A DNA stretch of 64,000 nucleotides, taken from IMG/VR virus record IMGVR_UViG_3300023112_001138, positions 10,147 through 74,146 of that record; one strand, written 5' to 3'. Every line of letters starts with the position of its first letter. Positions within the stretch are counted from its first letter, which is position 1. The notes below the pieces were generated by a model that saw only the letters and a list, made by a program, of their open reading frames with translations, had not been told where the DNA came from and ran no database searches. Positions 40,224-64,000 of this stretch are shown piece by piece. Position numbers and translations under genes: made by a program. Origin of the DNA: a virus.

Positions 40224-40261
40224 AGGTTCCTTTTTACTATAAATATCAAAGATTAATATTT

Positions 40262-41002
40262 TTATAAAGATCCTTGATCTATCTTAATATTCTTTAACGC
40301 AGTATATATTTTTTTAAATCTCCTCATTGATACCCTAATATCTTTAGTAGATAACCCAGATATCTCCCTTATATAGGACAATATTAAATTTTTGTTATAT
40401 TTATTCCCACTTTCTACCTGCTCAAATATAGTTTCCCAGTCTTCTAACACTACAATTAATGCATTACCTACACGCTTTTCATTTTCAGTAATTTTTAACC
40501 CAGATAATTCTTCTTTAATGTTAGAGGATATTTCTAATATGAAAACATCTAGCGGTGTTTTATCTTCATCTTCTAAGTTATATATATAATCATCCATCTT
40601 CTCCACTGTTGAGTACATGTCTTCGTATGATAAATCAGATTTCATCTTTTTATCGGATTTTAATAATTGACCCAATAGATAATTTTTACAAATGGTACCA
40701 AAATAGGAGTATGCTTTTTTATTTTTAGATGGTTGAAACTTTTCCATCTTTGTGGCTAAAAAAGAAAGGGTGTCGGAATGAATATCTTCATAAGTGTAAT
40801 CTTTCCTATATAATTTATACCGCCTAATGATTGACTCAATCATCTTATTTAGTGGTGCCTTTAAAAATGTATTATATATTTTATTTCTTTCTTCGTAATC
40901 GTCAGAGGTTAAAAATTCAACAACAGCTTTTTCTTGTTCAGGGCCAAAGTATAAATTAGTTGTCCTTTTTCTACCCCTCTTGTTGGTGGGTTTTTCGGAC
41001 AT
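40262..41002 (-). CDS. Phage sigma factor (T4 gp55-like late sigma)
   Basis: LYFG..QE.AV; KMEKFQPSKNKKAYSYFGTICKNYL resembles the gp55 F.P.K...F.YF region-2 motif. Confidence 0.7.
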   Translation of the reverse strand: MSEKPTNKRGRKRTTNLYFGPEQEKAVVEFLTSDDYEERNKIYNTFLKAPLNKMIESIIRRYKLYRKDYTYEDIHSDTLSFLATKMEKFQPSKNKKAYSYFGTICKNYLLGQLLKSDKKMKSDLSYEDMYSTVEKMDDYIYNLEDEDKTPLDVFILEISSNIKEELSGLKITENEKRVGNALIVVLEDWETIFEQVESGNKYNKNLILSYIREISGLSTKDIRVSMRRFKKIYTALKNIKIDQGSL

Positions 41003-41799
41003 TAATTTGTTTCTAATTCATATGTTATTTCTCTATCTTCAGTGAAAAAATATTCTTTTTTAGCTTTATTAACCCAAAACTTACTTTCCATTACATCTAC
41101 AGTGTTTTTATAGTGATCAAACAATGAATCTTTTCTATTGTTAGTATGTTTATACCCTAGTTTTGGTATTACCATAATTGGTATGGATAAGTAACTCATT
41201 CTTAATAGGAATTCATATGTAAACGTTAACTTCATATGTGTTTTAATACCACCATGTTCCTCATATAATGATTTATTAACAATCATTCCATCGAAATTAA
41301 AATTCTGAATCCTCTGGAGTGTGTTATTATCTAATAACCCCATTTCTTCACTTACATTTTTACCCCATATAGTTTCATTTGTAAAAGAAATAAATTGACC
41401 ATTTTCATCACATTCAAATACTATAGGTAGGAAAACGCCAACTTCAGGGTATGCATTTACATACTCTACCCCATTTTTGATCCATATTTGGGACATTTCA
41501 TCATCATACTCTAAAAATGTAAAATACTCAGTATCGCATTTACTAACACCAAAATTCATTTGTGATGGAAACCCATAGTCTCCATTTGTATTCTCAACCA
41601 CCCTAGTTATTTCTTTTATCTCACCGTAATCAAACTTATCAAGTAGTGTTTTAAGTTTTTTATCTTTAGACCTAACTATTAATAATTCTTTAGGTTTAAC
41701 TGATTGTGTTGCGATACTAGTTATTGCTCTTTTTAATAAAGTTTCTGTATTTTCTTGTACCTCATGTATTGGTAATATTACTGTAATATTATTGGACAT
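41002..41799 (-). CDS. Glycosyltransferase family 2
   Basis: ITVILPIH..AITSI..Q, NFGV, FTFLEYDD. Confidence 0.85.
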   Translation of the reverse strand: MSNNITVILPIHEVQENTETLLKRAITSIATQSVKPKELLIVRSKDKKLKTLLDKFDYGEIKEITRVVENTNGDYGFPSQMNFGVSKCDTEYFTFLEYDDEMSQIWIKNGVEYVNAYPEVGVFLPIVFECDENGQFISFTNETIWGKNVSEEMGLLDNNTLQRIQNFNFDGMIVNKSLYEEHGGIKTHMKLTFTYEFLLRMSYLSIPIMVIPKLGYKHTNNRKDSLFDHYKNTVDVMESKFWVNKAKKEYFFTEDREITYELETN

Positions 41800-41811
41800 A
41801 TTTAATTATTT

Positions 41812-42957
41812 TTATTTTTTGTTATTTTCAATTTGTAATTCAGGGGTAGTATTTAATTTCTCCTGTTCTTTTTCCCCAATGGTTTGCAACTCAACTATCC
41901 TTCTACCAAAAATTCTATTATATACTTCTTTAATAGAATTTTTCATCTCATCTTCAGTATATTTAGATTTATATTCTTCCATTGATTCTAATAAATTAGT
42001 AGGGATAGCATCCTCTAAATATAATCCAACTACGGTTGCAATTATATCTGGTATTGCATTTAAATTTGCTGTCCATATACCATTATCATTTAAATTTAAA
42101 TTACCATTTTCATCCACAGCTCCCATCCATTCAGGAACCATTCTAGGTATCTTACCAACAACAGGTGTTCCACATTTCATAGATTCTATTGGGAATGTAC
42201 CAAAACTAGATAATTCGTCAACCCACACACTTAAAAAGGATTTGGATAATTCCTTAGCGAATTCTTCTCTAGGTAATCCAGACATATCTCTAAATGTGAT
42301 GAACTGATATTGTGGGTATTTTTGATAAAATATTTTAACTATTTTTAACACTTCTCTTTTATCTCTAGCTGATAATGCAACTGTAGGTATCTTTGGTTTT
42401 TCATTCTCTTTGAAATACTCTGGAATTGCCACAGGAACGATTTCAGTAGATAAATTCCTAAATATCGATTCTATATAATTTTTAAGATTTTCATTTGTGG
42501 TTATAACCTCATTAATACCAAAATTTTGCCAATTCTCACCAATTTCTAACATCTCAAACACATATTCATATGATTGTAGAAAAACTAATCGTTTACAAGG
42601 AAATTTAGATGTTTGTTTCATAACACTAGCGAATGCTTCAGGTATAACAACAAAATCTGATGGTCCAACTTGCAATGTTTGCGATTCGATAGAAACGTGT
42701 GGTAAATTGGCGTATTCTTCACCTAACCACTCAGCAATACCAATCCCAGTTTCATCTTCTCTAAGTTTATAATCATTTTTATCATGTAGAATTTGGGCAT
42801 TAAATCCTAATTCTCTTAATACCTTAACATGTTCATATATAGTTGCAACACCAGCAGTGGGGTTACCTTTCGTATCAAGGGTAAAAAAATAAATACCGAA
42901 GTCCTTATCGGTTATTTTTTTTATTGATTCATTTATTGCGTTAATTTGTTCACTCAT
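41812..42957 (-). CDS. GT-B (GT4-like) glycosyltransferase
   Basis: AGVATIYEHV, DFVVIPE, SSFGTFPIESMKCGTPVVG. Confidence 0.8.
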   Translation of the reverse strand: MSEQINAINESIKKITDKDFGIYFFTLDTKGNPTAGVATIYEHVKVLRELGFNAQILHDKNDYKLREDETGIGIAEWLGEEYANLPHVSIESQTLQVGPSDFVVIPEAFASVMKQTSKFPCKRLVFLQSYEYVFEMLEIGENWQNFGINEVITTNENLKNYIESIFRNLSTEIVPVAIPEYFKENEKPKIPTVALSARDKREVLKIVKIFYQKYPQYQFITFRDMSGLPREEFAKELSKSFLSVWVDELSSFGTFPIESMKCGTPVVGKIPRMVPEWMGAVDENGNLNLNDNGIWTANLNAIPDIIATVVGLYLEDAIPTNLLESMEEYKSKYTEDEMKNSIKEVYNRIFGRRIVELQTIGEKEQEKLNTTPELQIENNKK

Positions 42958-42969
42958 ATTTTTATTTTT

Positions 42970-43275: not shown

Positions 43276-43336
43276 ATGCTTTTTTAAAAAATGTAAAATA
43301 AGTATCCCCTTAAGTAAACACTTAAAAATTATTAAT

Positions 43337-44112: not shown

Positions 44113-44116
44113 AAAT

Positions 44117-44872
44117 TTACCCTTCTAACTCTTCAAAAACCTTTTCGATTATTTTGATTACTGGGTTTCTAACTACATCGTCAGGGTTTCTAAGTGAAAC
44201 ACAACCAAAACCATCTATACCTTCAAACTTATCAATTACAACTTCTAATGAACTATTCTTAGGGTTCTTAATATCTTTTTGTTTAATATCACCAAGAATA
44301 ACCATCTTGGAGTTATCACCTATCCTCGTCATAAGGGTTCTCATATTCTGTATAGATATGTTTTGTGCCTCATCAATAATGATAATAGTATTATCTATAC
44401 TTCTTCCCCTAACAAATGCTAGTGGTTGTATCTGTATTAACCCCAACTCACGTAATTTATTAGTTAACGACTCACCAATAATCTTTTCAAAGTTATCAAT
44501 AAATGATATCATATAAGGATCCAACTTATCTTTCAAATCACCTGGTAAAAAACCTAATTCTTCACCTGGTAACTGTATAACAGATTTAACCAATAAAATC
44601 TTTTTATATTTAGGTTTTGTTTTAATTAGTTTAAGTGCTTCAGCACAGGCCAAAAACGTCTTTCCAGTACCTGGAAGTCCCGAAACTATAGTGATTTCAT
44701 TATTTTTAATAGACTCTATTACTAACTTTTGGTTTTCATTCTTACATTTAATATTTACAGACATCGACTTTAGGAATTTATCCTCCTCAGCGTTTTTCTT
44801 ATAAACAAAATTTTGTACTTCCTCTAATTCTTCTTCTGAGAGTTTACCTCGTCTTCTACTTGTTTTTGACAT
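44117..44872 (-). CDS. phoH: PhoH-family ATPase
   Basis: GLPGTGKT, ELGFLPGDLKDKLDPY, PLAFVRGRS, IDEAQN, TRIG, GD.KQ.D. Confidence 0.95.
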   Translation of the reverse strand: MSKTSRRRGKLSEEELEEVQNFVYKKNAEEDKFLKSMSVNIKCKNENQKLVIESIKNNEITIVSGLPGTGKTFLACAEALKLIKTKPKYKKILLVKSVIQLPGEELGFLPGDLKDKLDPYMISFIDNFEKIIGESLTNKLRELGLIQIQPLAFVRGRSIDNTIIIIDEAQNISIQNMRTLMTRIGDNSKMVILGDIKQKDIKNPKNSSLEVVIDKFEGIDGFGCVSLRNPDDVVRNPVIKIIEKVFEELEG

Positions 44873-44909
44873 ATATTAATAATAGCGTATTAATTAAATA
44901 TTGTGAATG

Positions 44910-45842
44910 TTATTTTCTAATATTATCATAATTAGATTCGAACCATTCTATTGTTTCTTTCAAACCATCATATAAAGGGGTAAATTTAAAGTTAGGTAAG
45001 TAATGTTTAATTTTACTATTATCACTTGGTTTTCTAAATTGACCGTCTGGTTTATTTTTATCGTATATAACTTCCCCTTTGAAATCCATTAACTCAACAA
45101 TAACCCCTACTACTTCTTTTATTGATATTTCTTCTGATGTTGATAATATAATTGGTTCATCTTCATTATAATTATCTAATACCCATTCTGTTAATTTAGC
45201 CACATCTTTATTATAGATAAATTCTCTTAATGGTTTACCACTTCCCCATATCATTAGTGGTGTGTTGGTTTCTCTAGCGATATAACATTTATGAATTAAT
45301 GAGGGTACGACATGTCCGTTTTCTATATCAAAGTTATCATTAATACCATATATATTTGTTGGGATAACTGATTTATAGTTTAAACCATATTGTTCTCTAT
45401 AAGCCCTGATTTGAACATCAGCCATTCTTTTAGCGTAGGCGTAAGCGTCATTTGAAAAGTGTGGTGGACCTAAATGTATTTTATCTTCCGTAAGTGGATA
45501 TTCTACATTATCTGGAAAAACACATGTTGATAAAAAACAAACTAGATTTTCTATCCCGTATTTTCTTGCGGATTCAATAACATTAGTATTGATCATAATA
45601 TTGTCATAAAAAAATTCACCTTTATAATTCATATTACCACCTAACCCACCTACTTTGGCGGCACAATGAATAACCGACCCCCAATCTGTAGAATTAATAT
45701 TATTAACATAGTTATTAAAAATATTTTTTGTTTCACCAATATTTCTAAGATCACAATCTGAAGAACTAAAATAACTATATTTTTCTCCCCTAAATTGTGA
45801 CCCAACTAAACCGTTGCCCCCAGTTACTAATATTTTACGCAT
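44910..45842 (-). CDS. fcl: GDP-L-fucose synthase
   Basis: TGGNGLVGS, HCAAKVGG, LSTCVFP, YAYAKR, PTNIYG, WGSGKPLREF. Confidence 0.95.
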   Translation of the reverse strand: MRKILVTGGNGLVGSQFRGEKYSYFSSSDCDLRNIGETKNIFNNYVNNINSTDWGSVIHCAAKVGGLGGNMNYKGEFFYDNIMINTNVIESARKYGIENLVCFLSTCVFPDNVEYPLTEDKIHLGPPHFSNDAYAYAKRMADVQIRAYREQYGLNYKSVIPTNIYGINDNFDIENGHVVPSLIHKCYIARETNTPLMIWGSGKPLREFIYNKDVAKLTEWVLDNYNEDEPIILSTSEEISIKEVVGVIVELMDFKGEVIYDKNKPDGQFRKPSDNSKIKHYLPNFKFTPLYDGLKETIEWFESNYDNIRK

Positions 45843-46869
45843 ATATAATATCTTTTTCTTTATAGTATTCTAACCAATACTCAATCATTTCATCTAACAT
45901 AGTTTCAAATGTATATTTAGGTTGCCAATCCAGTTCACTTCTTAATTTAGTGGAATCGCCCTTTAAATCGGTTAATTCTTCTGGTCTCATATGTTTACCT
46001 GAAATGGCAACATAATTTATATAGTTTAAATCTAATTTTTTAAAAACATATTCACAAAGTTCTCTAACTGAGTGTGAAACACCAGTGGAACAAACATAAT
46101 CATCTGGATTATCTGTCTGTAACATTAACCACATAGCTTCAATATAATCTTTAGCGTGTCCCCAATCTCTAGTTGCATCTAAATTACCTAAATGTAAGTT
46201 ATTTTGTAAACCTAATTTTATTTTAACTGCCGCCTTAACTACTTTATTGGTTACAAAATTAGTTCCACGTCTTGGTGATTCGTGATTGAACAATATCCCA
46301 TTCCATATTTTCATATTATAAGAATTTCTATAATTCCTACAAATATTATATGAAAATACCTTAGCACACCCATAAGGTGAAACTGGTGTCATCGGTGTGG
46401 TTTCTCTTTGATACCCATCAGCATCGATATTGTTACCAAACATTTCTGATGAACTTGCTTGATATATTTTTGAATGTGGAGATACCATTCTAACTGACTC
46501 TAATAAATTAAGTGTTCCCAATCCTGTTACATTGGCAGTGTATATTGGTTGATCGAAACTAACTTTTACGTGAGATTGAGCAGCTAAATTATATATCTCA
46601 TCTGGTTGTACCATTTGTAATACCCTCACTAGTGATGCCATATCTGTAAGATCGGCATATTCTAAATTAATTTTACCTGATGAACGAAGGTGTTCTATTC
46701 TTGTTGATTGTGTTTCTGATACAGAGTTTCTTTTTACTGTACCCCATACTTCGTAATTTTTTTCTAATAAAAACTCTGCAAGGTATGAACCATCTTGTCC
46801 GTTAATTCCAGTGATGAGACATTTACGACCCTTATAAACACCATTTTCTTTTTTCACTTCTTTTCCCAT
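45835..46869 (-). CDS. gmd: GDP-mannose 4,6-dehydratase
   Basis: ITGINGQDGSYLAE, NLAAQSHV, YQASSSEMFG, SPYGCAK, GILFNHESPRRG. Confidence 0.97.
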   Translation of the reverse strand: MGKEVKKENGVYKGRKCLITGINGQDGSYLAEFLLEKNYEVWGTVKRNSVSETQSTRIEHLRSSGKINLEYADLTDMASLVRVLQMVQPDEIYNLAAQSHVKVSFDQPIYTANVTGLGTLNLLESVRMVSPHSKIYQASSSEMFGNNIDADGYQRETTPMTPVSPYGCAKVFSYNICRNYRNSYNMKIWNGILFNHESPRRGTNFVTNKVVKAAVKIKLGLQNNLHLGNLDATRDWGHAKDYIEAMWLMLQTDNPDDYVCSTGVSHSVRELCEYVFKKLDLNYINYVAISGKHMRPEELTDLKGDSTKLRSELDWQPKYTFETMLDEMIEYWLEYYKEKDIIYA

Positions 46870-46904
46870 TTGTATTTATATTGTTTATTTATATTTACTT
46901 GTAA

Positions 46905-48158
46905 TTATAATTTAATTGCTTCTAAATTCAAACTCATTAATGTTCCATTTTTTTTATCCATATGTGGGAGATAGGCTTGGCTATAATCATCTATTTCTCT
47001 ATGTGATGTTTTTCGCCAATCCCATTCTTTTACTTTATAAAATCCAACATCCAACAATGATTTAGTTAGATTTTCTTTAGTAAAAATCATTCCATGATAA
47101 TCATATTTATTTCTTTGTCCACCTACTAATAATCCAGTTATTAAAGATAAATCATGGGTTTTATTATAATGTTCAATTATTTTATCTAAATCGGGCACTG
47201 CCAACCTTAAAATACCGCCAGGTCTTAATTTTTTAAACCATGTTTTTAAAACGTCTTTATATTCATATCTACCAAAATGTTCTAAAATGTGACTTCCATA
47301 GATTATATCATAAGAATCATCTTCAATGGAAGAAAGATGTTTAACGTCTTCTATTTTATCTACCCTTTCTTTATTATCAATATCTATATTTTCCCATCCC
47401 TCCATATATCTTTTACCGCACCCCACATGTAATTTTTTAATTTTACTAATAGGTGGATTAATGATTAAACTTTTTTCTTGGGTTTTTGTCATGGGAGGAT
47501 GGTGATGTTTAGACACATGAAACCCTGTTGTAATATCTAAGACTGGAAAATTTTCCTTATTATAATTTTTATCAATAAAAATCAAATTTACATTAGGGAT
47601 ATGAGCAATTAATTCATATCCTCGTTCATTTGCTAATTTAGTTAATGCTAACCCACTAGCTCCGTAAAATTGTGTATTATCCCATTCATGTTCCGGATTA
47701 TAAGGAACAGTTGTAGATTTTTCCCAATTGGAATTATATTCTACAATAACTACTTTGGGTTTAAATCGTAAATTATCCCATATCCAATAATCACACCCAT
47801 CTAAATCTAAGGACAAAATATCAAAGTCTATGGGGGTATTAGTCTTTATTAAAATTTCATCTAAAGTATCACCTTTTTCTAATGATACCATTTTATTAAT
47901 ACAGGATATATTATTATATGGTTTCATATTCTTAAGTAGTGTAGAATATTTTTCTTTATCACCCTCTATTAACGTAGCTGACCACCCTTTGGTAATGAGA
48001 TTATATACATTACTATATTTTATTCCGTCCCAAGCACCTAATTCTACTGAATGCCCATTTTTTATATTTAAAGTATTAAATATTGCTTCTATGATGCCAT
48101 CCTCTCCTCTTTGACTCCATACTTTCTTTTTATATTCATTTAAGTTTTCCATAATCAA
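46905..48158 (-). CDS. Fused double methyltransferase (FkbM-like plus class I SAM-MTase)
   Basis: SQRGEDGII..ELGAWDG..LSLDLDGCDYWIW; then KLHVGCG..SHILEH..LRPGGILRLAVPD. Confidence 0.8.
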   Translation of the reverse strand: MIMENLNEYKKKVWSQRGEDGIIEAIFNTLNIKNGHSVELGAWDGIKYSNVYNLITKGWSATLIEGDKEKYSTLLKNMKPYNNISCINKMVSLEKGDTLDEILIKTNTPIDFDILSLDLDGCDYWIWDNLRFKPKVVIVEYNSNWEKSTTVPYNPEHEWDNTQFYGASGLALTKLANERGYELIAHIPNVNLIFIDKNYNKENFPVLDITTGFHVSKHHHPPMTKTQEKSLIINPPISKIKKLHVGCGKRYMEGWENIDIDNKERVDKIEDVKHLSSIEDDSYDIIYGSHILEHFGRYEYKDVLKTWFKKLRPGGILRLAVPDLDKIIEHYNKTHDLSLITGLLVGGQRNKYDYHGMIFTKENLTKSLLDVGFYKVKEWDWRKTSHREIDDYSQAYLPHMDKKNGTLMSLNLEAIKL

Positions 48159-48161
48159 TTT

Positions 48162-49031: not shown

Positions 49032-49037
49032 ATATTT

Positions 49038-50233: not shown

Positions 50234-50234
50234 T

Positions 50235-51002: not shown

Positions 51003-51062
51003 AATTTAACACTATTGTAGGTATATTAATATTTTTAATGTCTATTATTTTCATAAGTTATA

Positions 51063-51755: not shown

Positions 51756-51757
51756 AA

Positions 51758-53157: not shown

Positions 53158-53162
53158 TTTAT

Positions 53163-56295: not shown

Positions 56296-56296
56296 A

Positions 56297-57592
56297 TTAA
56301 AATGGGTTAAACCCTAATTTTTTATTGTTAGTAGTGTAATTATTTTTTTCTAAAAAGAAAGTTAATGGAGATTTAAAGGAATCATTTTTTAATTTAACAC
56401 TTAAATTTAAAAATGATTGTACCACATCTTTATCTAAAAATGGGTATCTACTCTCCACACCGAAAGAACCAGTTACGAATTCTTCCTTTTGTAAATATGA
56501 AAATTGGGATCCATGATAAAAATTCTCCCAAGGAAAATAAGTGGATATGTTTTCGTCATGTTTAATAGGGTTACTTTTTCCAAAAGTATATGCTTGTATG
56601 TTAGACATGATTTCATCAGAACCTTGACCAGATGCCATTATTCTAATGTTTGGGTTTTCGTTTTTTACAGTTTTTAATAGATGATAAAGACCAAGAGCAC
56701 CAGGGTCATTAAACCCATCTATTGATTTTTTATTATAGCTACTGCCGTAAAAAAATGGTTCACAATTATTACTTAATCCCTCTTTAAGTTTTATCTTATT
56801 AATTGAATTGTCTTGTATGTAACTTTTTATGATATTTTCAGATTTCACCCTTTTTTTAATTATGTCTAAATTCTCTTTACCTTGAAATGAAAAAGTGGTA
56901 TAGGGGATTTTTAATATATCTAAACCACAAGCAATTGCACCACTATCATGACCACTACTTAATGGTAAGATTATATCATGTTGTATATTAGTGAATCGTT
57001 TTTTTAAAGATTTAATAAAATTATCTTCCCACTCACTAAAACTATCTATATTTTGTGTTAAATCAAAAACATATACACTTTCTTTTTTTATAATTTCTTT
57101 TGTAGTTAAGTCAAATTTTAATGTGGTATTGGGAGGTAATTTAGTAATATTATTAAACCCATTATTTCTTAAAATTGATTCGTAGGTAGACACACCTACA
57201 CCTGAAACTGATATATCATAGTATATTGGTTTGGTGCTGAATACATCACTAGATATGTATATGACATTTTTTTTGAAGTCGATTAATGTGATTGCAAATT
57301 CCCCATCTAATTTTTTAACAAAATTATCACCGAATTCTTTGTAATCATTTATTATATGGTAAACATCACTTTCATATTTTTTATTATAATTATAAATCTC
57401 ACCATTAAAAAGACAAACAATGTCACCATCAACTATGGGTTGCGTGGTTAGTGATCCTGTTAGTGATAGTAATGTATGTATGAAAGTAATTCCATTAACA
57501 TCTAAAATAGAAGTATTATCGGGACCCCTTAATTTTAATAGATTAAGGGTACTTTCATTAATGGGTTTGGTTGACACTACTATACCGCACAT
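56297..57592 (-). CDS. Asparagine-synthetase-like glutamine amidotransferase
   Basis: MCGI N-terminal nucleophile, RGPD, FNGEIYN, LSSGHDS, SGQGSDE, RYPFLD. Confidence 0.9.
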   Translation of the reverse strand: MCGIVVSTKPINESTLNLLKLRGPDNTSILDVNGITFIHTLLSLTGSLTTQPIVDGDIVCLFNGEIYNYNKKYESDVYHIINDYKEFGDNFVKKLDGEFAITLIDFKKNVIYISSDVFSTKPIYYDISVSGVGVSTYESILRNNGFNNITKLPPNTTLKFDLTTKEIIKKESVYVFDLTQNIDSFSEWEDNFIKSLKKRFTNIQHDIILPLSSGHDSGAIACGLDILKIPYTTFSFQGKENLDIIKKRVKSENIIKSYIQDNSINKIKLKEGLSNNCEPFFYGSSYNKKSIDGFNDPGALGLYHLLKTVKNENPNIRIMASGQGSDEIMSNIQAYTFGKSNPIKHDENISTYFPWENFYHGSQFSYLQKEEFVTGSFGVESRYPFLDKDVVQSFLNLSVKLKNDSFKSPLTFFLEKNNYTTNNKKLGFNPF

Positions 57593-57595
57593 ATT

Positions 57596-58219
57596 TTATA
57601 TTTTAATATTCTTTTTATTGTAAATTTCTGAACCAGATATTAGATCATCATTCTCAAAGTTGTAACCAAAATATTCAAAATCTTTTTTAAATCCTTCTAT
57701 CATTAACTCTATACTTTTTTCATCATAATAATCTTTAAAATGGGTTCTACTAGATTTATTAGTGTGTGGTAAAGTCCCCTCAATTCCTAACTTATTTTTA
57801 ATGAAATTAAAATCTTCATTTATTTTTTCAAATTTACCTACAAAATCTAATGTGATTGGGCTCTCTAAATCAGAATTTTCTGATAACCAAAGATACTGGG
57901 GTTTACAATCTTCATTAACTCTCCATTCTATATATTCTCCATAATTTTTAAATGACTTGATAAGTTTGTGTTGAAAATGAGATGTATCTTTTAACATATA
58001 ATGATATAAAGAAACTTGCCAATCAAACGGATTTCTTACAAATGCGAAAGTAAAATATTTGATATATTTATCTTTTCCATATTTATCGATATATTTTTTG
58101 GGTGGGTCATGTTTATCGGATATAAAGTTTCCATATTTATTTAAGATATTTCTCATAGAAGTACCACCTGTTTTATATAAATGAAAAAATATAAATTTAT
58201 TATTGTCGGATCCTATCAT
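57596..58219 (-). CDS. Sulfotransferase (Sulfotransfer_2-like)
   Basis: FFHLYKTGGTS, FVRNPFDWQVSLY, DFVGKFE. Confidence 0.85.
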   Translation of the reverse strand: MIGSDNNKFIFFHLYKTGGTSMRNILNKYGNFISDKHDPPKKYIDKYGKDKYIKYFTFAFVRNPFDWQVSLYHYMLKDTSHFQHKLIKSFKNYGEYIEWRVNEDCKPQYLWLSENSDLESPITLDFVGKFEKINEDFNFIKNKLGIEGTLPHTNKSSRTHFKDYYDEKSIELMIEGFKKDFEYFGYNFENDDLISGSEIYNKKNIKI

Positions 58220-58223
58220 AATT

Positions 58224-58931
58224 TTAATTTAATTCTATGTAACACAACCAAGTATATTGTTGTGATTCTTTTTTGAAAATCTCATGTTTATTTTCACTAT
58301 TTTCAAATATTGGTTTTTTGGTCGGGTATTCGACACCCCATTCATCACCCCATCTTGTTTTTATATCTTTATAAACGGGTGGGAATTCATAATAAAAATC
58401 CAGATTCTCTTCAAGATACTTTAAGTTACTATCTTTAGAATCGATAATCTTCTTTAAAGAATAACAATCCCCTTGATTAATAGGGTAATTATCCTCTATG
58501 ATTATTTTTTTAAAACCTAATTTTTTACATAATTTAATTCTTTCCAACGCATCTTGATGGTCATCGAAAAACAATATAGTATTTTCTTTATCTAAAGAAT
58601 CCCATTCTGAGGTATCAATATCCTTAAAATCAGTATTAAAATACTTAGCTGATTCAGATATGTATTCCCTTCTACTTAAATTAATATCTATACCAAATAC
58701 TTTAGATGTCGGTAAAACATTTTCAATCAACCAAGTACTTTGACCCCTCCAAACACCACTTTCTATAACACTACTAGGGCTTATCTTATCTAAAATAAAA
58801 TAAATGGCAAACATATGAGGTGTAACCATCCCACCCTTATTGTATTTTATTGGTCTTTTAGAATATAGTTCTAAAAAATCTTCAATCTTTTCTGTTATTT
58901 CATCATAAGACCACAATTCTTTATATTCCAT
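58224..58931 (-). CDS. Methyltransferase-like protein
   Basis: VIESGVWRGQSTW, FFDDHQ, EDNYP. Confidence 0.65.
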   Translation of the reverse strand: MEYKELWSYDEITEKIEDFLELYSKRPIKYNKGGMVTPHMFAIYFILDKISPSSVIESGVWRGQSTWLIENVLPTSKVFGIDINLSRREYISESAKYFNTDFKDIDTSEWDSLDKENTILFFDDHQDALERIKLCKKLGFKKIIIEDNYPINQGDCYSLKKIIDSKDSNLKYLEENLDFYYEFPPVYKDIKTRWGDEWGVEYPTKKPIFENSENKHEIFKKESQQYTWLCYIELN

Positions 58932-58935
58932 TGTT

Positions 58936-59718
58936 TTAAATTATTTTTACGTTATTTTCGTTTAATATTTTGTTCGTTATGTTAAAACTACCTTCTATAG
59001 AACAATTTTCTTCATACCATTTTATACCATTATTACTCATTTCTTCCCAATTTTCTTTCGTTATATTATTAATCTTTTCTTTTACCTCTTCCGGGTTAGA
59101 TGCCGTTATATAATGTTTATTTTCCTCTAATGGGTTATAGAATGTTAAATCGACTAAAGGTGTTATAATGGGGACAACTCCCATACACAGTAATTCAATT
59201 TCCCTATTACATTTAGGTCCATACCCACTTAAACATAAACCGAATTTACTTTTAGTCAATAATTTAAGATATTCTTTCTGATTATATTTATATTCACCAC
59301 GAATAGGCATACTAAAAAGTTCAATATTTTTTGACCAATCAACTTCTGTTCTTTTTCCCAACTGTACGTTATTTTCCACTTTACCCAAAAAGATCGATTC
59401 TATATTTCGATCACCCCAGCTCAGTCTTTCTTCTTTTATTTTTTCCATTAATCTAGGTCTCCTACCCCAAAATATCCAAGGCGAGGATTTAGGTAAGTTA
59501 GGTACGGTGTTACCGAATAATGCAAAATTATAATTTTGTCCACCATACCATTCTAGTGTTGGTCTATCGTAGAGTAGAACGTCACCATAATCATTTAACC
59601 AAACGTTTTTAACATTTTGATACTCTACCTCGCAGAAACCATTTTCTACCCATAGATCAACCAATTCTCTAAAGGTATCACCATTATGTTGATCATATTT
59701 AGGTTTTATTATTTTCAT
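58936..59718 (-). CDS. Exostosin/GT47-like glycosyltransferase
   Basis: EY..LL.KSKFGLCLSGYGPKCNREIE..GVVPI. Confidence 0.7.
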   Translation of the reverse strand: MKIIKPKYDQHNGDTFRELVDLWVENGFCEVEYQNVKNVWLNDYGDVLLYDRPTLEWYGGQNYNFALFGNTVPNLPKSSPWIFWGRRPRLMEKIKEERLSWGDRNIESIFLGKVENNVQLGKRTEVDWSKNIELFSMPIRGEYKYNQKEYLKLLTKSKFGLCLSGYGPKCNREIELLCMGVVPIITPLVDLTFYNPLEENKHYITASNPEEVKEKINNITKENWEEMSNNGIKWYEENCSIEGSFNITNKILNENNVKII

Positions 59719-60314
59719 TTTTTCAAAAAAGTTACTTCTTGGTAGTTTGGCGTTGTATGTATTATATCATAACCATTATTTTTTAACATATTAATTTTAT
59801 TCATTGTATCGTTAATTGTAATGGTTGATATTTGATTATGATGAAACTCAACACATATTTGTTTAACGCCCACACAATCAGATAAAACCTCATATTCTGA
59901 CCCCTCTATATCTAATTTTATGAGTGATGGGTTATAGTCAGTTATTAATGTTTTTATTGATACCGTTTCTACCTCGTGGTAATCACTATTACTTACCATT
60001 GTATGGGATGGTGTTGTTGATTCACTAACAAAATTTGGGTTTGTATTTTTATATAATTTTATTCTATCACCATCGACTTTACCTACTGCCTTTTTTATTA
60101 ACTTTAAATTAGGTAAATTAACACCCTCAATGAATTTATGGCTTTTAATTGTTGGGTCTATCCCCACTATATTGATATCTTTTAATTTATTGAGTTCAAT
60201 ATCAAAAGATATATCCTCACCTAACCCCCCATCAATAATTACATCACCGTCAGAAATGGAATCAACGTCAATTGTCCAACCACCATATTTTGTCCCTAAA
60301 TATTTTTTATTCAT
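59715..60314 (-). CDS. FkbM-family methyltransferase
   Basis: GTKYGGW, GLGEDISFD, DPT, LIKLDIEGSEY, QICVEFH. Confidence 0.88.
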   Translation of the reverse strand: MNKKYLGTKYGGWTIDVDSISDGDVIIDGGLGEDISFDIELNKLKDINIVGIDPTIKSHKFIEGVNLPNLKLIKKAVGKVDGDRIKLYKNTNPNFVSESTTPSHTMVSNSDYHEVETVSIKTLITDYNPSLIKLDIEGSEYEVLSDCVGVKQICVEFHHNQISTITINDTMNKINMLKNNGYDIIHTTPNYQEVTFLKK

Positions 60315-60997
60315 TTTTTATATTTTTTTATTATATTATCTATATATGTTTCTTTTAAATCAATATTACATTTTTTCATTATTTGTAAAGTATACCCACT
60401 AGGTATCCCAATATAATTTTCACCACCCTCAATTTTTTTGATAGTATTTTTTTTATTTAATGATATTTGCATTTTTTTAACTATGTCTATGACATTATAA
60501 GAAATCGGGTGAATAAAATTAATAATTTTAGGGTGTTTACCATCTAAATTATTTATAAAACAAGAGATATCAGCAACATCTATAATATTTCGATAAGCAT
60601 TTTTTAAAATTGTGATTTGTTCGTTATTATTTATTGTTTCTTTAAAATAATTGAACATCGTATTGGGGTTTCCTCCTTCACCCACAACGTTGGGTAATCT
60701 TATGGTTAAACTATTATTAACACTCTTCATCAACCTTTCTATCTTTAATTTATGTTCAACATATTTTGAATTAATTAAGGAAGAATCATATATACTATAA
60801 GTGCTAAAATAAATAATATTTTTATTAATGTCCCTATCTTTAATAAATTCCATTATCATTTCTATTTCTCGATTAAATTCAGTTTTTAAATCCTCATTAG
60901 AATTGGAAACCCCTGAAGCAAAAATTTCGAACCTATCCGTAGTTAAATTTTTTTTTAAGGATTTTGCTATTAAACCATTACCTATTATTTTTAACAT
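60311..60997 (-). CDS. NAD-dependent epimerase/dehydratase-like protein
   Basis: IIGNGLIA, FASGVSNS, YFST, YVEHK (YxxxK), IRLPNVVG. Confidence 0.8.
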   Translation of the reverse strand: MLKIIGNGLIAKSLKKNLTTDRFEIFASGVSNSNEDLKTEFNREIEMIMEFIKDRDINKNIIYFSTYSIYDSSLINSKYVEHKLKIERLMKSVNNSLTIRLPNVVGEGGNPNTMFNYFKETINNNEQITILKNAYRNIIDVADISCFINNLDGKHPKIINFIHPISYNVIDIVKKMQISLNKKNTIKKIEGGENYIGIPSGYTLQIMKKCNIDLKETYIDNIIKKYKK

Positions 60998-61640
60998 ACT
61001 CTAATAATTTAAATTTATTTTCTAACCCAACAGTCCAATTACCATGATGGATAATAACCTCATTGGGTATATTAAAATTTTCTCCATTCCATTGTTTTGG
61101 TCCAGTACTTGCTGCTACTGTAAAATATTTATTTTTAGGTAACCTACTATGTTTTATTGGGTGTTTATTGGAATTAAGGAAGTGGTTTATAATTTTTTGA
61201 TCATCCATACCATTTTTTACTGTATTTAATAAAGTTTTTAAAACATCTTTAAAAAAATTTAATATTTTTTCATTTTGATTGCAGACAAATAATCCAGCAC
61301 AAACACATACGATATCATCTTGAAATTTTATATCGTAATCACCTATATCTTCTATGATATCTTCTTTTATATTTTTAAAAAATTGTATGTCACAATCTGT
61401 GAAAACTAATGGGTTATTATCACTTATATCAACGTTGTTAATTATATGTTCAACTTTACCTATCATTGTTTGATTAAACCCCAATGTACCATATGATACA
61501 TCTTTTGTAATTTGTTTATAGTGACACCCTAAAAGTTCAAAATCATCTTTCAAATATTGTTTATACGAAGATAAAAAATATTTTTCATATAACTCTTTAT
61601 GTGAATCAGTATAAAAAGTTAATAATTTTATTTTTTTCAT
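60978..61640 (-). CDS. Nucleotide-diphospho-sugar transferase (GT77-like)
   Basis: VFTDCDIQF, CAGLF, DDQ, HHGNWTVGLENK. Confidence 0.75.
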   Translation of the reverse strand: MKKIKLLTFYTDSHKELYEKYFLSSYKQYLKDDFELLGCHYKQITKDVSYGTLGFNQTMIGKVEHIINNVDISDNNPLVFTDCDIQFFKNIKEDIIEDIGDYDIKFQDDIVCVCAGLFVCNQNEKILNFFKDVLKTLLNTVKNGMDDQKIINHFLNSNKHPIKHSRLPKNKYFTVAASTGPKQWNGENFNIPNEVIIHHGNWTVGLENKFKLLEYVKNNR

Positions 61641-61641
61641 A

Positions 61642-62280
61642 TTAAATAGGATTTACGTAATAGTATGGTTTTTCAACCACATCTTTGTTATTTATATGCT
61701 CTTTTTGACCCACCAATGTTTCTTTATAATTTCTTATATTAGTATTATGGGTATGATAAGTTTTAATAATACTACAAGGGTTTCTTAAAATAAATCCCTT
61801 ATTTTTAAATTCCCAAGCAATTCTATTATCACAACCTAATTTACCTAAATAAAAATCAGAATAATCTAATTCTTTCATTTTACCTAACCATATCCAAGTA
61901 TCTTGACAATCAGATCTCATTATTTCTACTTTTGGGGTTTCTTTATATTCCCACCTCAATAAAGATAATAACATATTATTATTTATAATGTTTTTAACAT
62001 CTTTTATGGTTTCATCTAAAAAAATATCAGTATTAGTTAAAATATTTATGTCATCCTCTTTTGTAAATTCATTAATTATATTAAAAAAATCTTTAAATGT
62101 TGGTCTTTTATGTGGGATAATTTTTAATTTATTATTAGTAAATGGTACATCATCTGTTTCACTAAGAATATAAATTTTATCAATAAAACCATTACTTATA
62201 TTCTTACCCAAACAAAAATCAATTTCTTTTTGCCTTTCTGAATTTTTATCTTTATAATATGAAGTAAACAAATTTATCAT
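61642..62280 (-). CDS. Putative glycosyltransferase-like protein
   Basis: RPTFKDFF, TNTDIFL, QDTWI, LGKLGCDNRIA. Confidence 0.55.
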   Translation of the reverse strand: MINLFTSYYKDKNSERQKEIDFCLGKNISNGFIDKIYILSETDDVPFTNNKLKIIPHKRPTFKDFFNIINEFTKEDDINILTNTDIFLDETIKDVKNIINNNMLLSLLRWEYKETPKVEIMRSDCQDTWIWLGKMKELDYSDFYLGKLGCDNRIAWEFKNKGFILRNPCSIIKTYHTHNTNIRNYKETLVGQKEHINNKDVVEKPYYYVNPI

Positions 62281-63680
62281 GCAACAATTTTATTATCTTT
62301 TATTTCGAAGTTTTTATTCATTATTTTCATATATAGTTCTTGACTATTTTTATTGGCTTCGGTAGATACTGTTCCATCTTTTTCATGATGAAAATATACA
62401 AATAGTGGTTTAGGTATTCTTTTACCTACATACCCCTCTTTCATCATTCTTATCCACATATCATAATCTTCCCAACCAGTTAACTCTTCATCGTAACCAT
62501 TAACTTTTTCAAAAGCTTCTCTATGAAACATTGAACAATTAACGATAAACGGACCCTTCAGTAATGTTTCTTTATTCCATTCTGGACGTTTTTCAATTCC
62601 TTGCATTTGACCAACATGATGTGTATCACAATAAACTGGACTTACATTTTTTTCTCTCTTTAAAATTGCAACACATGTTTTCATATAACCATCTAAAATC
62701 ATATCATCAGAATCTAAAGGTAATATATAATCACCATTACAATGTTTAAACGCCTCATTTCTAGCTGAAGATGGTCCACCATTTTCTTTATAAACAACTT
62801 TGATTTTTTCATTACTTTCCAGTTGTTTTAGTTTTAGTTTCACAAATTCATCAGTTGACCCGTCATCAACCAATATAATTTCATAGTTTGTGTAATCTTG
62901 ATTAAAAACAGAATTTAATGTTTGATTGATTCTATTACCATAGTTATATATTGGCATTAAGATAGAAACCAAAGGTTCATCCTTCTTTATGTTTTTAGTT
63001 TTATATGTGTATGGTATTATTTGTGGTAACTTATCTTCATATTTTTCCACAAATTGTTTTTTATTATTTTCCCATTGTTCATTTGTTTGACCAATGGATA
63101 AATGTGTAATTGCAATATCTGATATTACACCCACCTTTACATCATTTAAAAAATTATTAAAACAAAAATCTAGTTCATAAAAGTGAAAACCTTTAATGTC
63201 CTCATCGAAATTAGATTTAATATTATTCTTATTTACAATAAAAAATAAACCATCAACGATAATGGTATCCTCTATTTTATTACCAAAAAATTCATTATAT
63301 TTAGATAGCCATTTTTTACCTTGGTTTTGGTGGTGTACTTGACCTACCGATTCTGTCATACCATTATCCCACCAACAACCAGATTTAGGTAGATATTTTG
63401 ACCCAGCTTTACCTAAAATACCATAATCAGGGTTTCGTTTAAAGTGTTTTAATATTTTATTACCCCAATTTTTTGTTTCAAAAATGATGTCATCATGACA
63501 AAAAACCACAATGTCATTTGTAGTTTCTTTTAAAGCCCTATTATATAATTCAGTTAAACCAAACTCTCCATCATTAACGTATTGAATGACTTCCAACCCC
63601 TTATAAACCCCAGAAGATTTCTTTATGTGATCAATGTGAGGTTGGTTATCTTTTCTTGTTGAAAATACGACACTAATCAT
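62277..63680 (-). CDS. Two-domain GT2 glycosyltransferase
   Basis: N-domain VVFCHDDI..VDGLF..FHFYELDF; C-domain PLVSILMP..VDDGSTD..ARN..LDSDD..EDYDMW. Confidence 0.9.
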   Translation of the reverse strand: MISVVFSTRKDNQPHIDHIKKSSGVYKGLEVIQYVNDGEFGLTELYNRALKETTNDIVVFCHDDIIFETKNWGNKILKHFKRNPDYGILGKAGSKYLPKSGCWWDNGMTESVGQVHHQNQGKKWLSKYNEFFGNKIEDTIIVDGLFFIVNKNNIKSNFDEDIKGFHFYELDFCFNNFLNDVKVGVISDIAITHLSIGQTNEQWENNKKQFVEKYEDKLPQIIPYTYKTKNIKKDEPLVSILMPIYNYGNRINQTLNSVFNQDYTNYEIILVDDGSTDEFVKLKLKQLESNEKIKVVYKENGGPSSARNEAFKHCNGDYILPLDSDDMILDGYMKTCVAILKREKNVSPVYCDTHHVGQMQGIEKRPEWNKETLLKGPFIVNCSMFHREAFEKVNGYDEELTGWEDYDMWIRMMKEGYVGKRIPKPLFVYFHHEKDGTVSTEANKNSQELYMKIMNKNFEIKDNKIVA

Positions 63681-63885: not shown

Positions 63886-64000
63886 ATCTATTTATTTTTA
63901 TGTTTATTTATTTTAAAATCGTACCAATATTTAAAGTTTATAAGGACATTGTTTTTACCTCTAGGTGGTGAAAGTTTAATTAAATGACTGTCATCCGCTT

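Follow-up and report, generated by a model that had tools for sequence, protein, structure and literature searches.

In the chlorovirus PBCV-1, soluble glycosyltransferases (GTs) and methyltransferase domains build a fucose-containing, methylated capsid glycan without a lipid carrier. The virus is described as encoding its own GMD (A118R) and GMER (A295L), which supply GDP-fucose from host GDP-mannose, together with soluble GTs for its capsid glycans (PMC9614988), and its capsid glycosylation system also includes A064R and A111/114R (PMC9614988, PMC7826918). The phage locus described here is alike in its own GDP-fucose supply; however, in the main text of the PBCV-1 review the words 'sulfated' and 'sulfotransferase' do not occur and no swapping of cassettes is described (PMC9614988). 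PBCV-1 also differs in having a eukaryotic host and a capsid glycan that was shown experimentally, whereas the glycan considered here is predicted from genes. The fibril-glycosylation clusters of the Megavirinae (Moumouvirus australiensis ma457-ma468, and Cotonvirus) resemble the present locus in gene content, with sugar-nucleotide genes, several GTs, a methyl-/acetyltransferase and a predicted sulfotransferase (PMC10117803). These clusters are presented as clade-specific, with sulfation that is predicted but unvalidated; they have amoebal hosts, one sulfotransferase as against two here, and a bifunctional sulfate adenylyltransferase/APS kinase (PMC10117803). No such enzyme was found in the present contig or in four relatives.

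Among tailed phages, mycobacteriophage virion glycosylation is the only direct proof known of the mechanism proposed below. The mycobacteriophages studied by Freeman et al. in 2023 infect actinobacteria, and their cassettes are said to be small, with two to four genes, and to lack sulfation. Mycobacteriophage GTs glycosylate the phages' own capsid and tail-tube subunits, as cited in PMC12619734 and PMC12801897. The cyanomyoviruses S-SCSM2R, S-SCSM1 and P-SSM2 are, like the present phage, large T4-type marine phages with clustered soluble GTs; their clusters combine GT2, GT11, GT25, GT10 and other GTs with nucleotide-sugar epimerases or dehydratases, the function being unproven, and S-SCSM2R, with 13 GTs, possibly has the highest number in a marine phage (PMC12801897). 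The present phage belongs to another lineage, with a capsid protein that shares no more than 32% identity with cyanophage gp23, and its locus alone has 7-11 GTs, within 23% of the genome. The main text of the cyanomyovirus paper does not contain the word 'sulfotransferase', whereas two sulfotransferases are present here, and describes no conserved frame with a swapped cassette (PMC12801897). The moraphages, aquatic T4-related jumbo phages of 200-307 kb with four core GT orthogroups and predicted Flavobacteriia hosts (PMC12619734), are similar by description. The complete relative G001 is a 296-kb record (CheckV 100% complete), and the lineage has core GTs too, namely a GT2 of 265 aa, a GT-B of 381 aa, a two-domain GT2 'anchor' and, seen in relatives, a fourth GT-B-like gene upstream of the dUTPase gene. 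The moraphage paper treats GTs in one paragraph, in a text where 'sulfotransferase' and 'fucose' have no occurrences and no variable cassette is described (PMC12619734). Bacterial O-antigen and capsule serotype loci are alike in their conserved flanks, their swapped lower-GC interior of GTs and tailoring enzymes, and their donor-synthesis genes (gmd, fcl) at one edge. Unlike these, the present locus lies in a virus and has no priming phosphoglycosyl transferase, flippase, exporter or polymerase of the types searched for.

Source and gene content of the locus

The window (the whole 64,000-nucleotide stretch analysed here) comes from an uncultured marine T4-type jumbo phage. Its 74-kb contig is incomplete, and is estimated by CheckV at about 23% of a genome of roughly 300 kb, with 77% outside the contig. 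The contig that carries the glycan locus also has genes for terminase, portal and a gp23-type capsid protein, and IMG/VR holds at least 595 relatives of its capsid protein. A Bacteroidota host and mimicry of algal fucans, both suggested in the preliminary description, gained no support from either of two host tests.

All 28 ORFs of the block of about 23 kb at 41002-63680 are on the minus strand, and 21 of the 27 junctions overlap or span at most 6 nt, in agreement with the translational coupling ascribed earlier to many of the genes. With firm assignments defined by a Pfam score at or above the curated cut-off or a PDB match of E<1e-9, 16 ORFs are firmly assigned, seven weakly and five (42970, 43337, 51063, 60311 and 61642) have no family assignment. 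A separate epimerase proposed earlier, probably 60311-60997, is a tentative call from motifs read by eye. Both genes for GDP-L-fucose are firm as claimed: GDP-mannose 4,6-dehydratase (gmd, 45835-46869; Pfam E 7.8e-122) and GDP-L-fucose synthase (fcl, 44910-45842; PDB 4e5y E 4.9e-95). The same holds for the GT2 genes. One of these is the lineage-core gene at 41002-41799 (Pfam Glycos_transf_2 E 2.6e-12), whose start codon overlaps no upstream gene's stop; the other is the anchor (62277-63680), with two GT-A domains (Pfam Glyco_tranf_2_5 at residues 40-214, GT2 and Glyco_transf_7C at 239-432), the C-terminal one matching E. coli K4 chondroitin polymerase (2z86, E 2.5e-28) and heparosan synthase (8vh7, E 7e-14). 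The lineage-core GT-B (41812-42957) matches a glucosyltransferase (PDB 8xsg, E 6e-10, residues 41-347).

The GT25 enzyme (52474-53157; Pfam E 9.2e-18) and the GT77-type nucleotide-diphospho-sugar transferase (60978-61640; Pfam Nucleotid_trans E 5.5e-7, 30.2 bits against a cut-off of 22) were likewise borne out. Other GT claims stood in part. One of two GT11-like proteins is a firm GT11-type fucosyltransferase (55528-56295; Pfam Glyco_transf_11 E 8.9e-8, 32.1 bits against 23.9), the second (48162-49031) having moderate support from hhalign against a GT11 alignment of four sequences (94.6%, E 7e-8). The RXYLT1_C/GT47-like enzyme at 53787-54638 is just over the Pfam cut-off (27.5 against 27 bits), and a second at 58936-59718, weak by itself (E 0.014), has a 40-residue motif in common with it (blastp E 3e-6). 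A possible GT-D (DUF1792-type) enzyme at 51758-52477 gave weak matches (Pfam GT-D E 0.027; NCBIfam TIGR03728 E 4.2e-4, over the identical region), and 54635 may belong, on a weak Atlas lead, to a virus-only GT-A-like family.

Two Sulfotransfer_2 enzymes were claimed and both are firm, one matching over its full length (57596-58219; Pfam E 1.7e-12) and one in its N-terminal half (49038-49679; E 2.2e-8); they are related to each other (blastp E 5.6e-10). The former carries KTGGTS and RNPxxxxxS motifs, presumably with a role in PAPS binding, and the latter PKTGGSS and RNTYERLLS. About seven methyltransferase domains had been counted, of which three are firm and four weak. The locus encodes an FkbM-type enzyme (59715-60314; Pfam Methyltransf_21 E 2.4e-11), a DUF268 protein (50235-51002; E 2.6e-29), which we take to be methyltransferase-type, and a 417-aa protein (46905-48158) with a C-terminal SAM methyltransferase domain (Methyltransf_11, 22.7 bits against 21.2) and a weak FkbM-like match in its N-terminal part (E 0.061); weak matches were also obtained for 58224 (CmcI-type, E 0.058), 53163 (E 0.026) and 49676 (Methyltransf_24, E 0.2). 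The Asn-synthetase-type amidotransferase claimed earlier is a 431-aa AsnB-type glutamine amidotransferase (56297-57592) with firm GATase_7 (E 6e-12) and Asn_synthase (E 1.9e-8) domains, an N-terminal Cys2, an SSGHDS PP-loop-like motif and 187 viral relatives; it scores 100.5 bits with NCBIfam asn_synth_AEB, under that model's cut-off. The locus is, as had been proposed, a real phage-borne pathway of soluble enzymes for GDP-fucose, glycosyl transfer, sulfation, methylation and AsnB-type amidotransfer. It also contains a PhoH-like ATPase gene (44117-44872; Pfam E 2.7e-61), missing from the earlier gene list, which is not a glycan gene.

A conserved frame with a replaced interior

The new finding is a conserved frame with a wholesale-replaced interior across related phage records. 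The frame has the order dUTPase, two-domain GT, variable block, PhoH, GT-B, GT2 and sigma-like gene; it is entire in eight related records, with one end in a ninth, and the block between the frame genes is replaced in each related record. The variable interior here (46870-62276) has 20 ORFs in 15.4 kb, the largest cassette seen, with a GC content of about 0.24-0.29, lower than elsewhere in the window. It holds the two sulfotransferases, GT25, GT11, GT77 and RXYLT1/GT47-type GTs, the AsnB-like enzyme, methyltransferases and ORFs of unknown function. The flanks are 87-89% DNA-identical to the closest relative, L163, and no DNA similarity to L163 was found between 62277 and 46818. Four other islands each have homologues, at 23-39% identity, of only zero to six of the 20 interior ORFs. 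The interiors of two annotated relatives are also made up of glycan genes, in different sets, including GT10, GT11, GT25, sulfotransferases, FkbM/TylF/MT24 methyltransferases, a HAD-nucleotidyltransferase and a GDSL protein.

At the upstream edge, the anchor is 93, 83 and 78% identical in G006, L164 and G005, and its N-terminal domain is present in all five relatives searched. At the downstream edge gmd is conserved, with 82-91% identity in G004, G005 and G006, and PhoH is kept in relatives. The 381-aa GT-B has homologues in five of five relatives (42-77% identical) and the 265-aa GT2 in 16 of the relatives' loci. However, fcl varies between close relatives: L163 is without it, and metagenome contigs join 44912 to 45844 across its position.

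Seawater metagenomes spanning 2016 to 2025 contain this version of the island again with little change: contigs from another seawater study carry an identical island (0 differences), and an 11.4-kb contig from a 2025 run differs from it at 140 positions. Two runs have contigs with a common first base, 46843, which lies some 27 nt within the start of gmd, at the edge of the island. Contig-based depth is a weak measure, by which the flanks exceed the interior in three of four runs. A bacterial glycan block misjoined to a phage contig, by chimeric assembly or host contamination, would fit the low GC of the interior but is refuted, as eight other viral records have this frame next to their capsid module, contigs from independent metagenomes span both island edges with no differences (X7 at 46490-47302, X4 at 61636-62336), and strand and tight gene packing run on unbroken from the phage genes.

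Soluble enzymes, exporters and likely timing

The earlier claim that the enzymes have no transmembrane segments agrees broadly with a crude Kyte-Doolittle scan (19-residue window, threshold 1.6), in which three of the 28 ORFs (42970, 48162 and 58936) reach 1.6 in one window and none has two hydrophobic segments; the whole 74-kb contig has no real multi-TM ORF. GT solubility does not discriminate between the readings weighed below because the GTs of bacterial O-antigen and capsule loci are as a rule soluble too. The locus had further been called exporter-less on the grounds of what the window lacks. That argument says little because the contig is only about 23% of the genome; moreover, soluble phage GTs might be served by exporters of the host. 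The claim gains from a wider search, in which Bac_transf, WecA-type GT4, Wzx and ABC-2 permease were found in none of five records (the contig and four relatives, one of them the 296-kb complete genome). APS kinase was not found in these records either, consistent with the reported absence of PAPS-synthesis genes from the window.

The preliminary description placed the locus directly before late sigma and structural genes. A sigma-like gene (40262-41002, minus strand) does adjoin it downstream, its start codon overlapping the GT2 stop codon by one base (junction -1 nt); both labels, however, are weak. The sigma-like protein is below threshold in Pfam (Sigma70_r2 E 5.5e-4, 20.1 bits against 24) and NCBIfam (sigma70-ECF E 4.7e-4), and a PDB search with a profile of 20 sequences gave no sigma factor. 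For five of the six genes at 34802-41002, nothing in PHROG, Pfam or NCBIfam matched better than E 0.002, and there was no match in the PDB for two of the six or in the Atlas for one. The island's neighbours are nucleotide-metabolism genes (dUTPase in relatives, PhoH here). The lineage's late-promoter motif is absent from the sense strand of the intergenic parts of the locus but occurs, at 36241 and 40239, in front of two downstream genes, although overall it is only marginally enriched (56 found, 40 expected). Given the nucleotide-metabolism flanks and the lack of this motif, the locus looks early or middle and not part of the virion operon.

Possible acceptors of the glycan

The best single reading, a tentative one, is a glycan locus with virion proteins as acceptor. 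The products of gmd and fcl would convert host GDP-mannose into GDP-L-fucose, and a chain would be assembled in the cytoplasm of the infected cell by seven firm GTs (eight domains) and up to four weak ones, GT11-type fucosyltransferases among them. The chain would be sulfated by two PAPS-type sulfotransferases and methylated by three to seven methyltransferases, and the AsnB-type enzyme probably converts a uronic acid to its amide; the host, or the part of the genome outside the contig, must supply PAPS, GDP-mannose and any UDP-uronic acid. The glycan would be placed on one or more virion proteins of the phage itself, giving a strain-specific surface, in effect a phage 'serotype', in which the frame enzymes may lay the glycan base and the swapped cassette make the variable outer part. 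The earlier proposal of cytoplasmic assembly on a phage acceptor is favoured by the soluble pathway and the lack of a lipid-carrier route; however, the contig offers no candidate acceptor, none of its real ORFs having a Ser/Thr-rich stretch, and the locus is flanked by nucleotide-metabolism genes, outside the virion operon. As acceptors, virion proteins rank as most likely, then the host surface and then DNA.

Remodelling of the host envelope, in which the soluble phage enzymes would act on undecaprenyl-linked O-antigen or capsule intermediates and a host flippase or ABC exporter would display the glycan, is less likely. It could block superinfection or stop progeny from sticking to debris, and the cassette would vary because it must match equally variable host-strain glycans. 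Conserved flanks around a swapped lower-GC interior are the architecture of bacterial serotype loci, the C-terminal domain of the anchor resembles ABC-exporter-linked capsule polymerases such as the K4 enzyme, and the location of the locus, with metabolic genes of early type around it and no late motif, suits action during infection; this is also the published reading of the cyanomyovirus clusters for 'cell wall synthesis and modification' (PMC12801897). However, the absence of priming transferase, Wzx and ABC-2 permease extends to the complete genome, a full donor supply with more than seven GTs suggests de novo synthesis over editing, and the benefit for a lytic jumbo phage is unproven.

In known DNA-glycan clusters, a C5-methyltransferase and dioxygenase, or a hydroxymethylase, are accompanied by a single GT or a few. 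That the present glycan is carried on a modified base, evading restriction, with the cassette diversifying in an arms race with modification-dependent nucleases, is improbable in view of at least seven GTs, two sulfotransferases and several methyltransferases. In addition, G003 has a ThyA-family protein whose matches are true thymidylate synthases (E 2.6e-70; each of the 60 matches listed bears that name) and not hydroxymethylases. A Tet_JBP search gave no match here but carries no weight, as it gave none in any control genome either. The neighbours (dUTPase, PhoH and a 209-aa gene that has no family assignment but, by eye, a HAD-like motif near its N-terminus) would suit DNA modification, as would reports that phage DNA can bear glycans one to three sugars long, uronic and ulosonic acids among them (bioRxiv 10.1101/2023.12.21.572611), and of glycosyl- and sulfotransferase-based nucleotide modification in phages, citing Iyer et al. 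2013, together with co-occurrence with phoH (PMC10829341); in the text of the former, however, 'sulfotransferase' and 'fucose' do not occur. Little credence is given to a free product, attached covalently to neither virion, envelope nor DNA: a sulfated polysaccharide, cytoplasmic or released at lysis, or a glycosylated small molecule or lipid, which could serve as matrix, decoy or signal. Neither acceptor nor exporter was found, and the two-domain anchor resembles processive glycosaminoglycan polymerases, but the single-addition families GT11, GT25, GT77 and GT47-like fit a branched oligosaccharide of defined structure more readily than a homopolymer, and we know of no phage precedent.

In the related records, the glycan locus sits at a fixed place in the genomes of this lineage, and its cassette is exchanged wholesale between relatives, like the middle of a bacterial serotype locus.

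A conserved frame around an exchanged cassette

The locus at 41002-63680 consists of a variable interior of 20 ORFs (46870-62276) enclosed by a frame of conserved genes. The whole frame recurs in the related phage records G001 (complete), G002, G003, G004, G005, G006, L166 and L167, and its upstream end is seen in L164. In the direction of transcription it runs from a dUTPase and the anchor, a two-domain glycosyltransferase (GT) gene at 62277-63680, through the variable block to gmd with or without fcl, PhoH, a 209-aa gene, a GT-B gene (41812-42957), a GT2 gene (41002-41799), a sigma-like gene (40262-41002), a 127-aa gene, a 545-aa-type gene and further genes, with a convergent capsid gene at the far end. 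The dUTPase is seen in the relatives, and here its position would fall just beyond the contig end. DNA identity to the closest relative (L163/G006) is 89% over 63872-62277 and 87% over 46818-45824, with zero DNA similarity across the 15.4 kb between these matching flanks.

The variable block measures 15.4 kb (20 ORFs) in this window, 10.4 kb (11-12 ORFs) in G002, 9.5 kb (14) in G005, 8.5 kb (12) in G006, 6.0 kb (9) in G001, about 5 kb (7) in G003, 4.4 kb (6) in L166 and 3.9 kb (5) in G004, and the cassette described here is the largest and chemically richest of the lineage among the records compared. Any homologue was found for six of its 20 ORFs in G005, three in G006, one in G003 and none in G004, and all interior homologues in other islands are 23-39% identical. 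Pfam annotation of two other interiors identified glycan genes as well, but in different sets, comprising glycosyltransferases (GT25, GT10, GT11), sulfotransferases (Sulfotransfer_2 and a sub-threshold Sulfotransfer_3 match), methyltransferases (Methyltransf_24, FkbM, TylF), a HAD-nucleotidyltransferase fusion and a sub-threshold GDSL match; in the G004 interior a family was found for one of the five ORFs. Interior GC here is 0.24-0.29, lower than in most of the window. Conserved flanks around a swapped, compositionally distinct interior, a feature of serotype loci, are thus present, and the comparison shows cassette exchange, not gradual divergence.

The frame itself varies at fcl (44910-45842), a presence/absence polymorphism: only some relatives carry the gene, and in L163/G006 no fcl lies between gmd and PhoH. 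At the opposite edge, the anchor is immediately preceded by an ORF of about 68 aa (63681-63887, minus strand), whose DNA is conserved in L163 and L165. Upstream of this small ORF the relatives carry the dUTPase and, farther up, a protein of 407-419 aa whose Glycos_transf_1 match is weak (E 0.0016); it might represent a fourth GT conserved in the lineage, situated beyond the end of this contig.

Persistence of the cassette in seawater

A 10-kb probe had at least half of its sampled words in 14 runs from seawater or marine metagenomes of 2016-2025 (a listing of 20 rows from 14 studies, three rows of which are possibly the source sample). Four runs were compared with the locus. In X4 (2019), where this genotype reaches a contig depth of about 155, there are no differences over 46843-53249, 54432-59089 and 59120-61664, and in X9 (2025) an 11.4-kb contig over 46843-57673 carries 140 differences. 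Both island edges are spanned by contigs from X7 and X4 with zero differences. In two runs contigs start at one and the same base, 46843, at the edge of the island and about 27 nt into gmd. Contig joints also skip fcl, from 44912 to 45844 in X9 and from 44917 to 45828 in X4 and X16.

The recurring frame and the independent metagenome contigs across both edges exclude an assembly chimera, so that the preliminary description's concern about a chimeric host contig does not apply. Summed contig depth was higher in the flanks than in the interior by about 1.3-2.6x in X4, 2.4-13x in X9 and 4x or more in X16, and in X7 exceeded the interior only at the gmd edge, but contig-derived depth is a poor measure that cannot rank genes and makes this difference a weak hint. 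If reliable, it would mean that co-occurring relatives share these flanks and carry another cassette.

Enzyme content

All 28 ORFs of the locus lie on the minus strand, and 21 of the 27 junctions overlap or are at most 6 nt long. Family assignment was firm for 16 ORFs, weak for seven and absent for five. Those firmly assigned are GT2, GT-B (PDB 8xsg, a glucosyltransferase, E 6e-10), PhoH, GDP-L-fucose synthase (fcl, 44910-45842; PDB match to GDP-L-fucose synthase, E 4.9e-95), gmd (Pfam E 7.8e-122), a SAM methyltransferase, two Sulfotransfer_2 proteins, DUF268, GT25, an RXYLT1_C/GT47-type protein, GT11, an AsnB-type amidotransferase (56297-57592; 431 aa, with an N-terminal Cys2 and a PP-loop-like SSGHDS), an FkbM methyltransferase, GT77 and the 467-aa anchor with two GT-A domains; seven are glycosyltransferase proteins. 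DUF268, GT77, GT47/RXYLT1 and Sulfotransfer_2 are families typical of eukaryotes. Weak assignments concern a second GT11-like protein (hhalign 94.6%), GT-D (Pfam E 0.027; NCBIfam E 4.2e-4), a second GT47-like protein, three methyltransferase-like proteins and a 298-aa ORF (54635-55531) of a virus-only family found near GT77/GT47-bearing clusters in the Atlas, where it falls in virus-only clusters common to Uroviricota and Nucleocytoviricota. No NCBIfam model reached its curated cut-off for the 10 locus proteins searched.

The enzyme list first read from this DNA was therefore correct in substance. Not secure in it are the GT-D, the second GT47-like protein, the separate "epimerase" and four of the "about 7" methyltransferase domains; PhoH and two unknown genes lie within 41002-63680 without being glycan genes. 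The described lack of transmembrane segments is in line with a crude Kyte-Doolittle scan: two hydrophobic 19-residue windows occur together in none of the locus ORFs, and the contig as a whole encodes no real multi-TM protein.

An A-rich box, AAAAATATAAAA(A/T), lies directly 5' of several island start codons (ORFs 46905-48158, 48162-49031, 56297-57592 and 59715-60314). It could be an initiation signal of a host that does not use Shine-Dalgarno sequences, or a simple composition effect.

The phage and the genes downstream

The window covers bases 10147-74146 of a single viral contig of 74,146 nt, which lacks a terminal repeat and has 23% completeness (CheckV). Its plus strand encodes a large terminase (PHROG E 4.7e-48), a portal (E 6.7e-60) and a gp23-type major capsid protein (E 8.7e-67). 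Identity of the capsid protein to those of deposited phages does not exceed 39%, the top match being Microcystis phage Mel-JY01 and the other best matches two uncultured huge phages and Flavobacterium phage immuto; in IMG/VR it has at least 595 relatives, among them a 296-kb record rated complete. Neither megablast of the whole locus nor tblastn of the GT-B core gave any match in 50,697 phage records, and therefore no close relative is cultured or deposited. The contig is accordingly part of an uncultured marine jumbo phage that belongs to a large T4-related lineage. In size class, habitat and number of core GTs it resembles the moraphages described in PMC12619734.

The preliminary description proposed a Bacteroidota host and mimicry of algal fucan, for which two host tests gave no support. 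The nearest cellular relatives of an 825-aa Clp-type ATPase (10331-12808, minus strand) are at most 51% identical, and these 41 loci come from Omnitrophota, Planctomycetes, Patescibacteria, Bacillota and Proteobacteria MAGs, none bearing a Bacteroidota label. Of the T9SS C-terminal domains, the type-A family Por_Secre_tail was searched and had no match in the contig, with a weak control (no genome over the cut-off).

Downstream of the locus, the gene proposed as a late sigma factor has sub-threshold matches only, with no PDB sigma factor recovered by single-sequence or 20-sequence-profile search; tblastn gave two phage matches, unannotated or hypothetical. The six genes at 34802-41002 had no PHROGs match, and the 476-, 445-, 134- and 545-aa proteins yielded nothing usable from Pfam (E up to 10), two PDB searches or the Atlas, leaving the proposed structural identity of these genes unconfirmed, with a late motif before two of them. 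The late-promoter motif RTATTTAT occurs 56 times against 40 expected, a count reached by two of 100 shuffles; in DNA of 30% GC it is too weak a motif to time the locus and serves as a hint only. The 445-, 134- and 545-aa proteins (36250-39839, minus strand) are 48%, 35% and 33% identical in G006, where their neighbours reach 68-93%, and 88-93% identical in L001. One idea, drawn from these identities, is that they evolve fast, as do host-recognition proteins; they might serve in host recognition or be candidate acceptors of the glycan.

Predicted chemistry of the glycan

The chemistry is read from enzyme families. A virus-encoded nucleotide-sugar supply is present in gmd and fcl, a feature of the PBCV-1 type (GMD and GMER), and these enzymes would convert GDP-mannose to GDP-L-fucose, from which GT11-type enzymes would transfer fucose. 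The GDP-fucose synthase (44910-45842) scores 321 bits against 4e5y and 4bkp, the best-scoring solved entries named GDP-L-fucose synthase, and 172 bits against 1bsv; we take the first two to be human and the last to be from E. coli. The KTGG(S/T)S and RNxxxxxxS motifs, presumably involved in PAPS binding, are retained in each of the two sulfotransferases. Consistent with the earlier observation that PAPS-synthesis genes are absent from the window, APS kinase (PF01583) was found in none of five records (the contig and four relatives, one of them complete), in a search whose control matched 11 of 14 genomes and which covered, of the sulfate-activation enzymes, APS kinase alone. The host or unseen DNA would therefore have to supply PAPS.

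The AsnB-like enzyme is a member of a widespread viral family: of 206 candidate stretches in IMG/VR, 187 are relatives, and among the 80 loci kept from these, 16 are on contigs named as giant-virus MAGs. Within 6 kb of the AsnB-like gene, the 80 loci hold SDR epimerases/dehydratases (27), methyltransferases (26), GT77 (23), UDP-glucose/GDP-mannose dehydrogenase (15), mannose-1-P-type nucleotidyltransferase (15) and GT8 (13), a neighbourhood that fits a putative role in uronic acid amidation. The C-terminal domain of the anchor (62277-63680) is most similar to the glycosaminoglycan polymerases K4CP and PmHS2, making it possible that the anchor builds a repeating backbone.

What the glycan is attached to

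Virion proteins are the acceptor that we favour, tentatively and at somewhat less than even confidence. The enzymes are soluble, and the initiating phosphoglycosyl transferases (PF02397 and PF00953; controls matched in 9 and 12 of 14 genomes) and the flippase and ABC-2 exporter families (PF01943 and PF01061) were found in none of the five records, one of which is complete. This agrees with the preliminary statement that flippase, ABC exporter and priming transferase are missing from the window, at only 23% completeness of the contig itself. Precedents are described for chloroviruses, Megavirinae and mycobacteriophages, and the mechanism is plausible. However, no Ser/Thr-rich acceptor candidate occurs in the 74-kb contig, where such windows are confined to antisense or spurious ORFs; the locus has nucleotide-metabolism genes as neighbours, the late motif is absent from its intergenic parts, and 77% of the genome lies outside the contig. 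Remodelling of the host surface, with the glycan placed on the host envelope, is less probable, a minority reading favoured by the serotype-locus architecture and by the interpretation of cyanophage clusters given in PMC12801897; it faces the same absence of an initiating transferase and exporter, both of which a bacterial Wzx/Wzy- or ABC-type locus has.

DNA modification is improbable. The neighbouring genes are compatible with it, and a single sentence in PMC10829341 cites Iyer et al. 2013 on sulfotransferases in DNA-modification systems. However, the number and kinds of enzymes do not fit: DNA-glycan clusters, as described in 10.1101/2023.12.21.572611, have one to few GTs and make mono- to trisaccharides, whereas this locus has at least seven GT proteins, two sulfotransferases and at least three methyltransferase-type proteins. 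As to an enzyme that would create the attachment point by hydroxymethylating or oxidising a base, a ThyA-family gene is present in three of the five records, not including our contig, and in G003 looks like a true, canonical thymidylate synthase; Tet_JBP had no match in the five records, but none in any control genome either, which makes that search uninformative. Release of the glycan as a free product is comparably unlikely, and the small remainder falls to other readings.

Relation to known systems and implications

Megavirinae-type clusters for sulfated fibril glycans include a sulfotransferase, as does this locus with its two Sulfotransfer_2 proteins, but they have their own sulfate activation (SAT/APS kinase), for which APS kinase was not found here. 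The PBCV-1 and mycobacteriophage type has several soluble GTs, matched here by seven firm GT proteins. Large glycan gene clusters of aquatic phages are listed in genome papers. Multi-GT clusters are in print for cyanomyoviruses (PMC12801897), core GTs for moraphages (PMC12619734), virus-made capsid or fibril glycans for giant viruses (PMC9614988, PMC10117803) and DNA glycans (10.1101/2023.12.21.572611). In the papers searched, sulfation in virus glycan clusters was encountered only as a prediction for the giant viruses Moumouvirus and Cotonvirus (PMC10117803), and not for phages. A literature search covering main texts outside subscription journals found no description of phage glycan islands with sulfotransferases or of fixed-site swapped glycan cassettes in phages, although moraphage and cyanophage gene tables may list sulfotransferases missing from those main texts.

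The preliminary description is good, and the feature it describes is real. The locus is rich in chemistry, combining two sulfotransferases with a fucose supply and an amidotransferase, and its cassette has a fixed site and is swapped among phages that are otherwise alike; their uncultured lineage is very large, with at least 595 relatives of the capsid protein in IMG/VR. Besides the cassette itself, this window contributes the metagenome evidence for cassette persistence and for fcl presence/absence: one version has stayed nearly unchanged in seawater for about nine years, apparently beside relatives with only the flanks in common. Fixed-site swapping together with persistence implies strong diversifying selection on a phage-made glycan.

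A more specific proposal, which we consider a long shot, is a phage "serotype" locus. A coat built in the cytoplasm would carry a different glycan in each strain of an abundant marine lineage, here a fucose-rich, sulfated and methylated one resembling algal fucan and serving as bait; glycan-binding and uptake proteins of polysaccharide-foraging hosts would grab it, and the cassette would set host range besides the tail fibres. Should the glycan sit on the virion, phage particles would have serotypes; this would provide a concrete target for lectin-sorted viromics and would matter for host recognition, evasion of defences, the stickiness of particles and the sulfated-polysaccharide pool of the sea.
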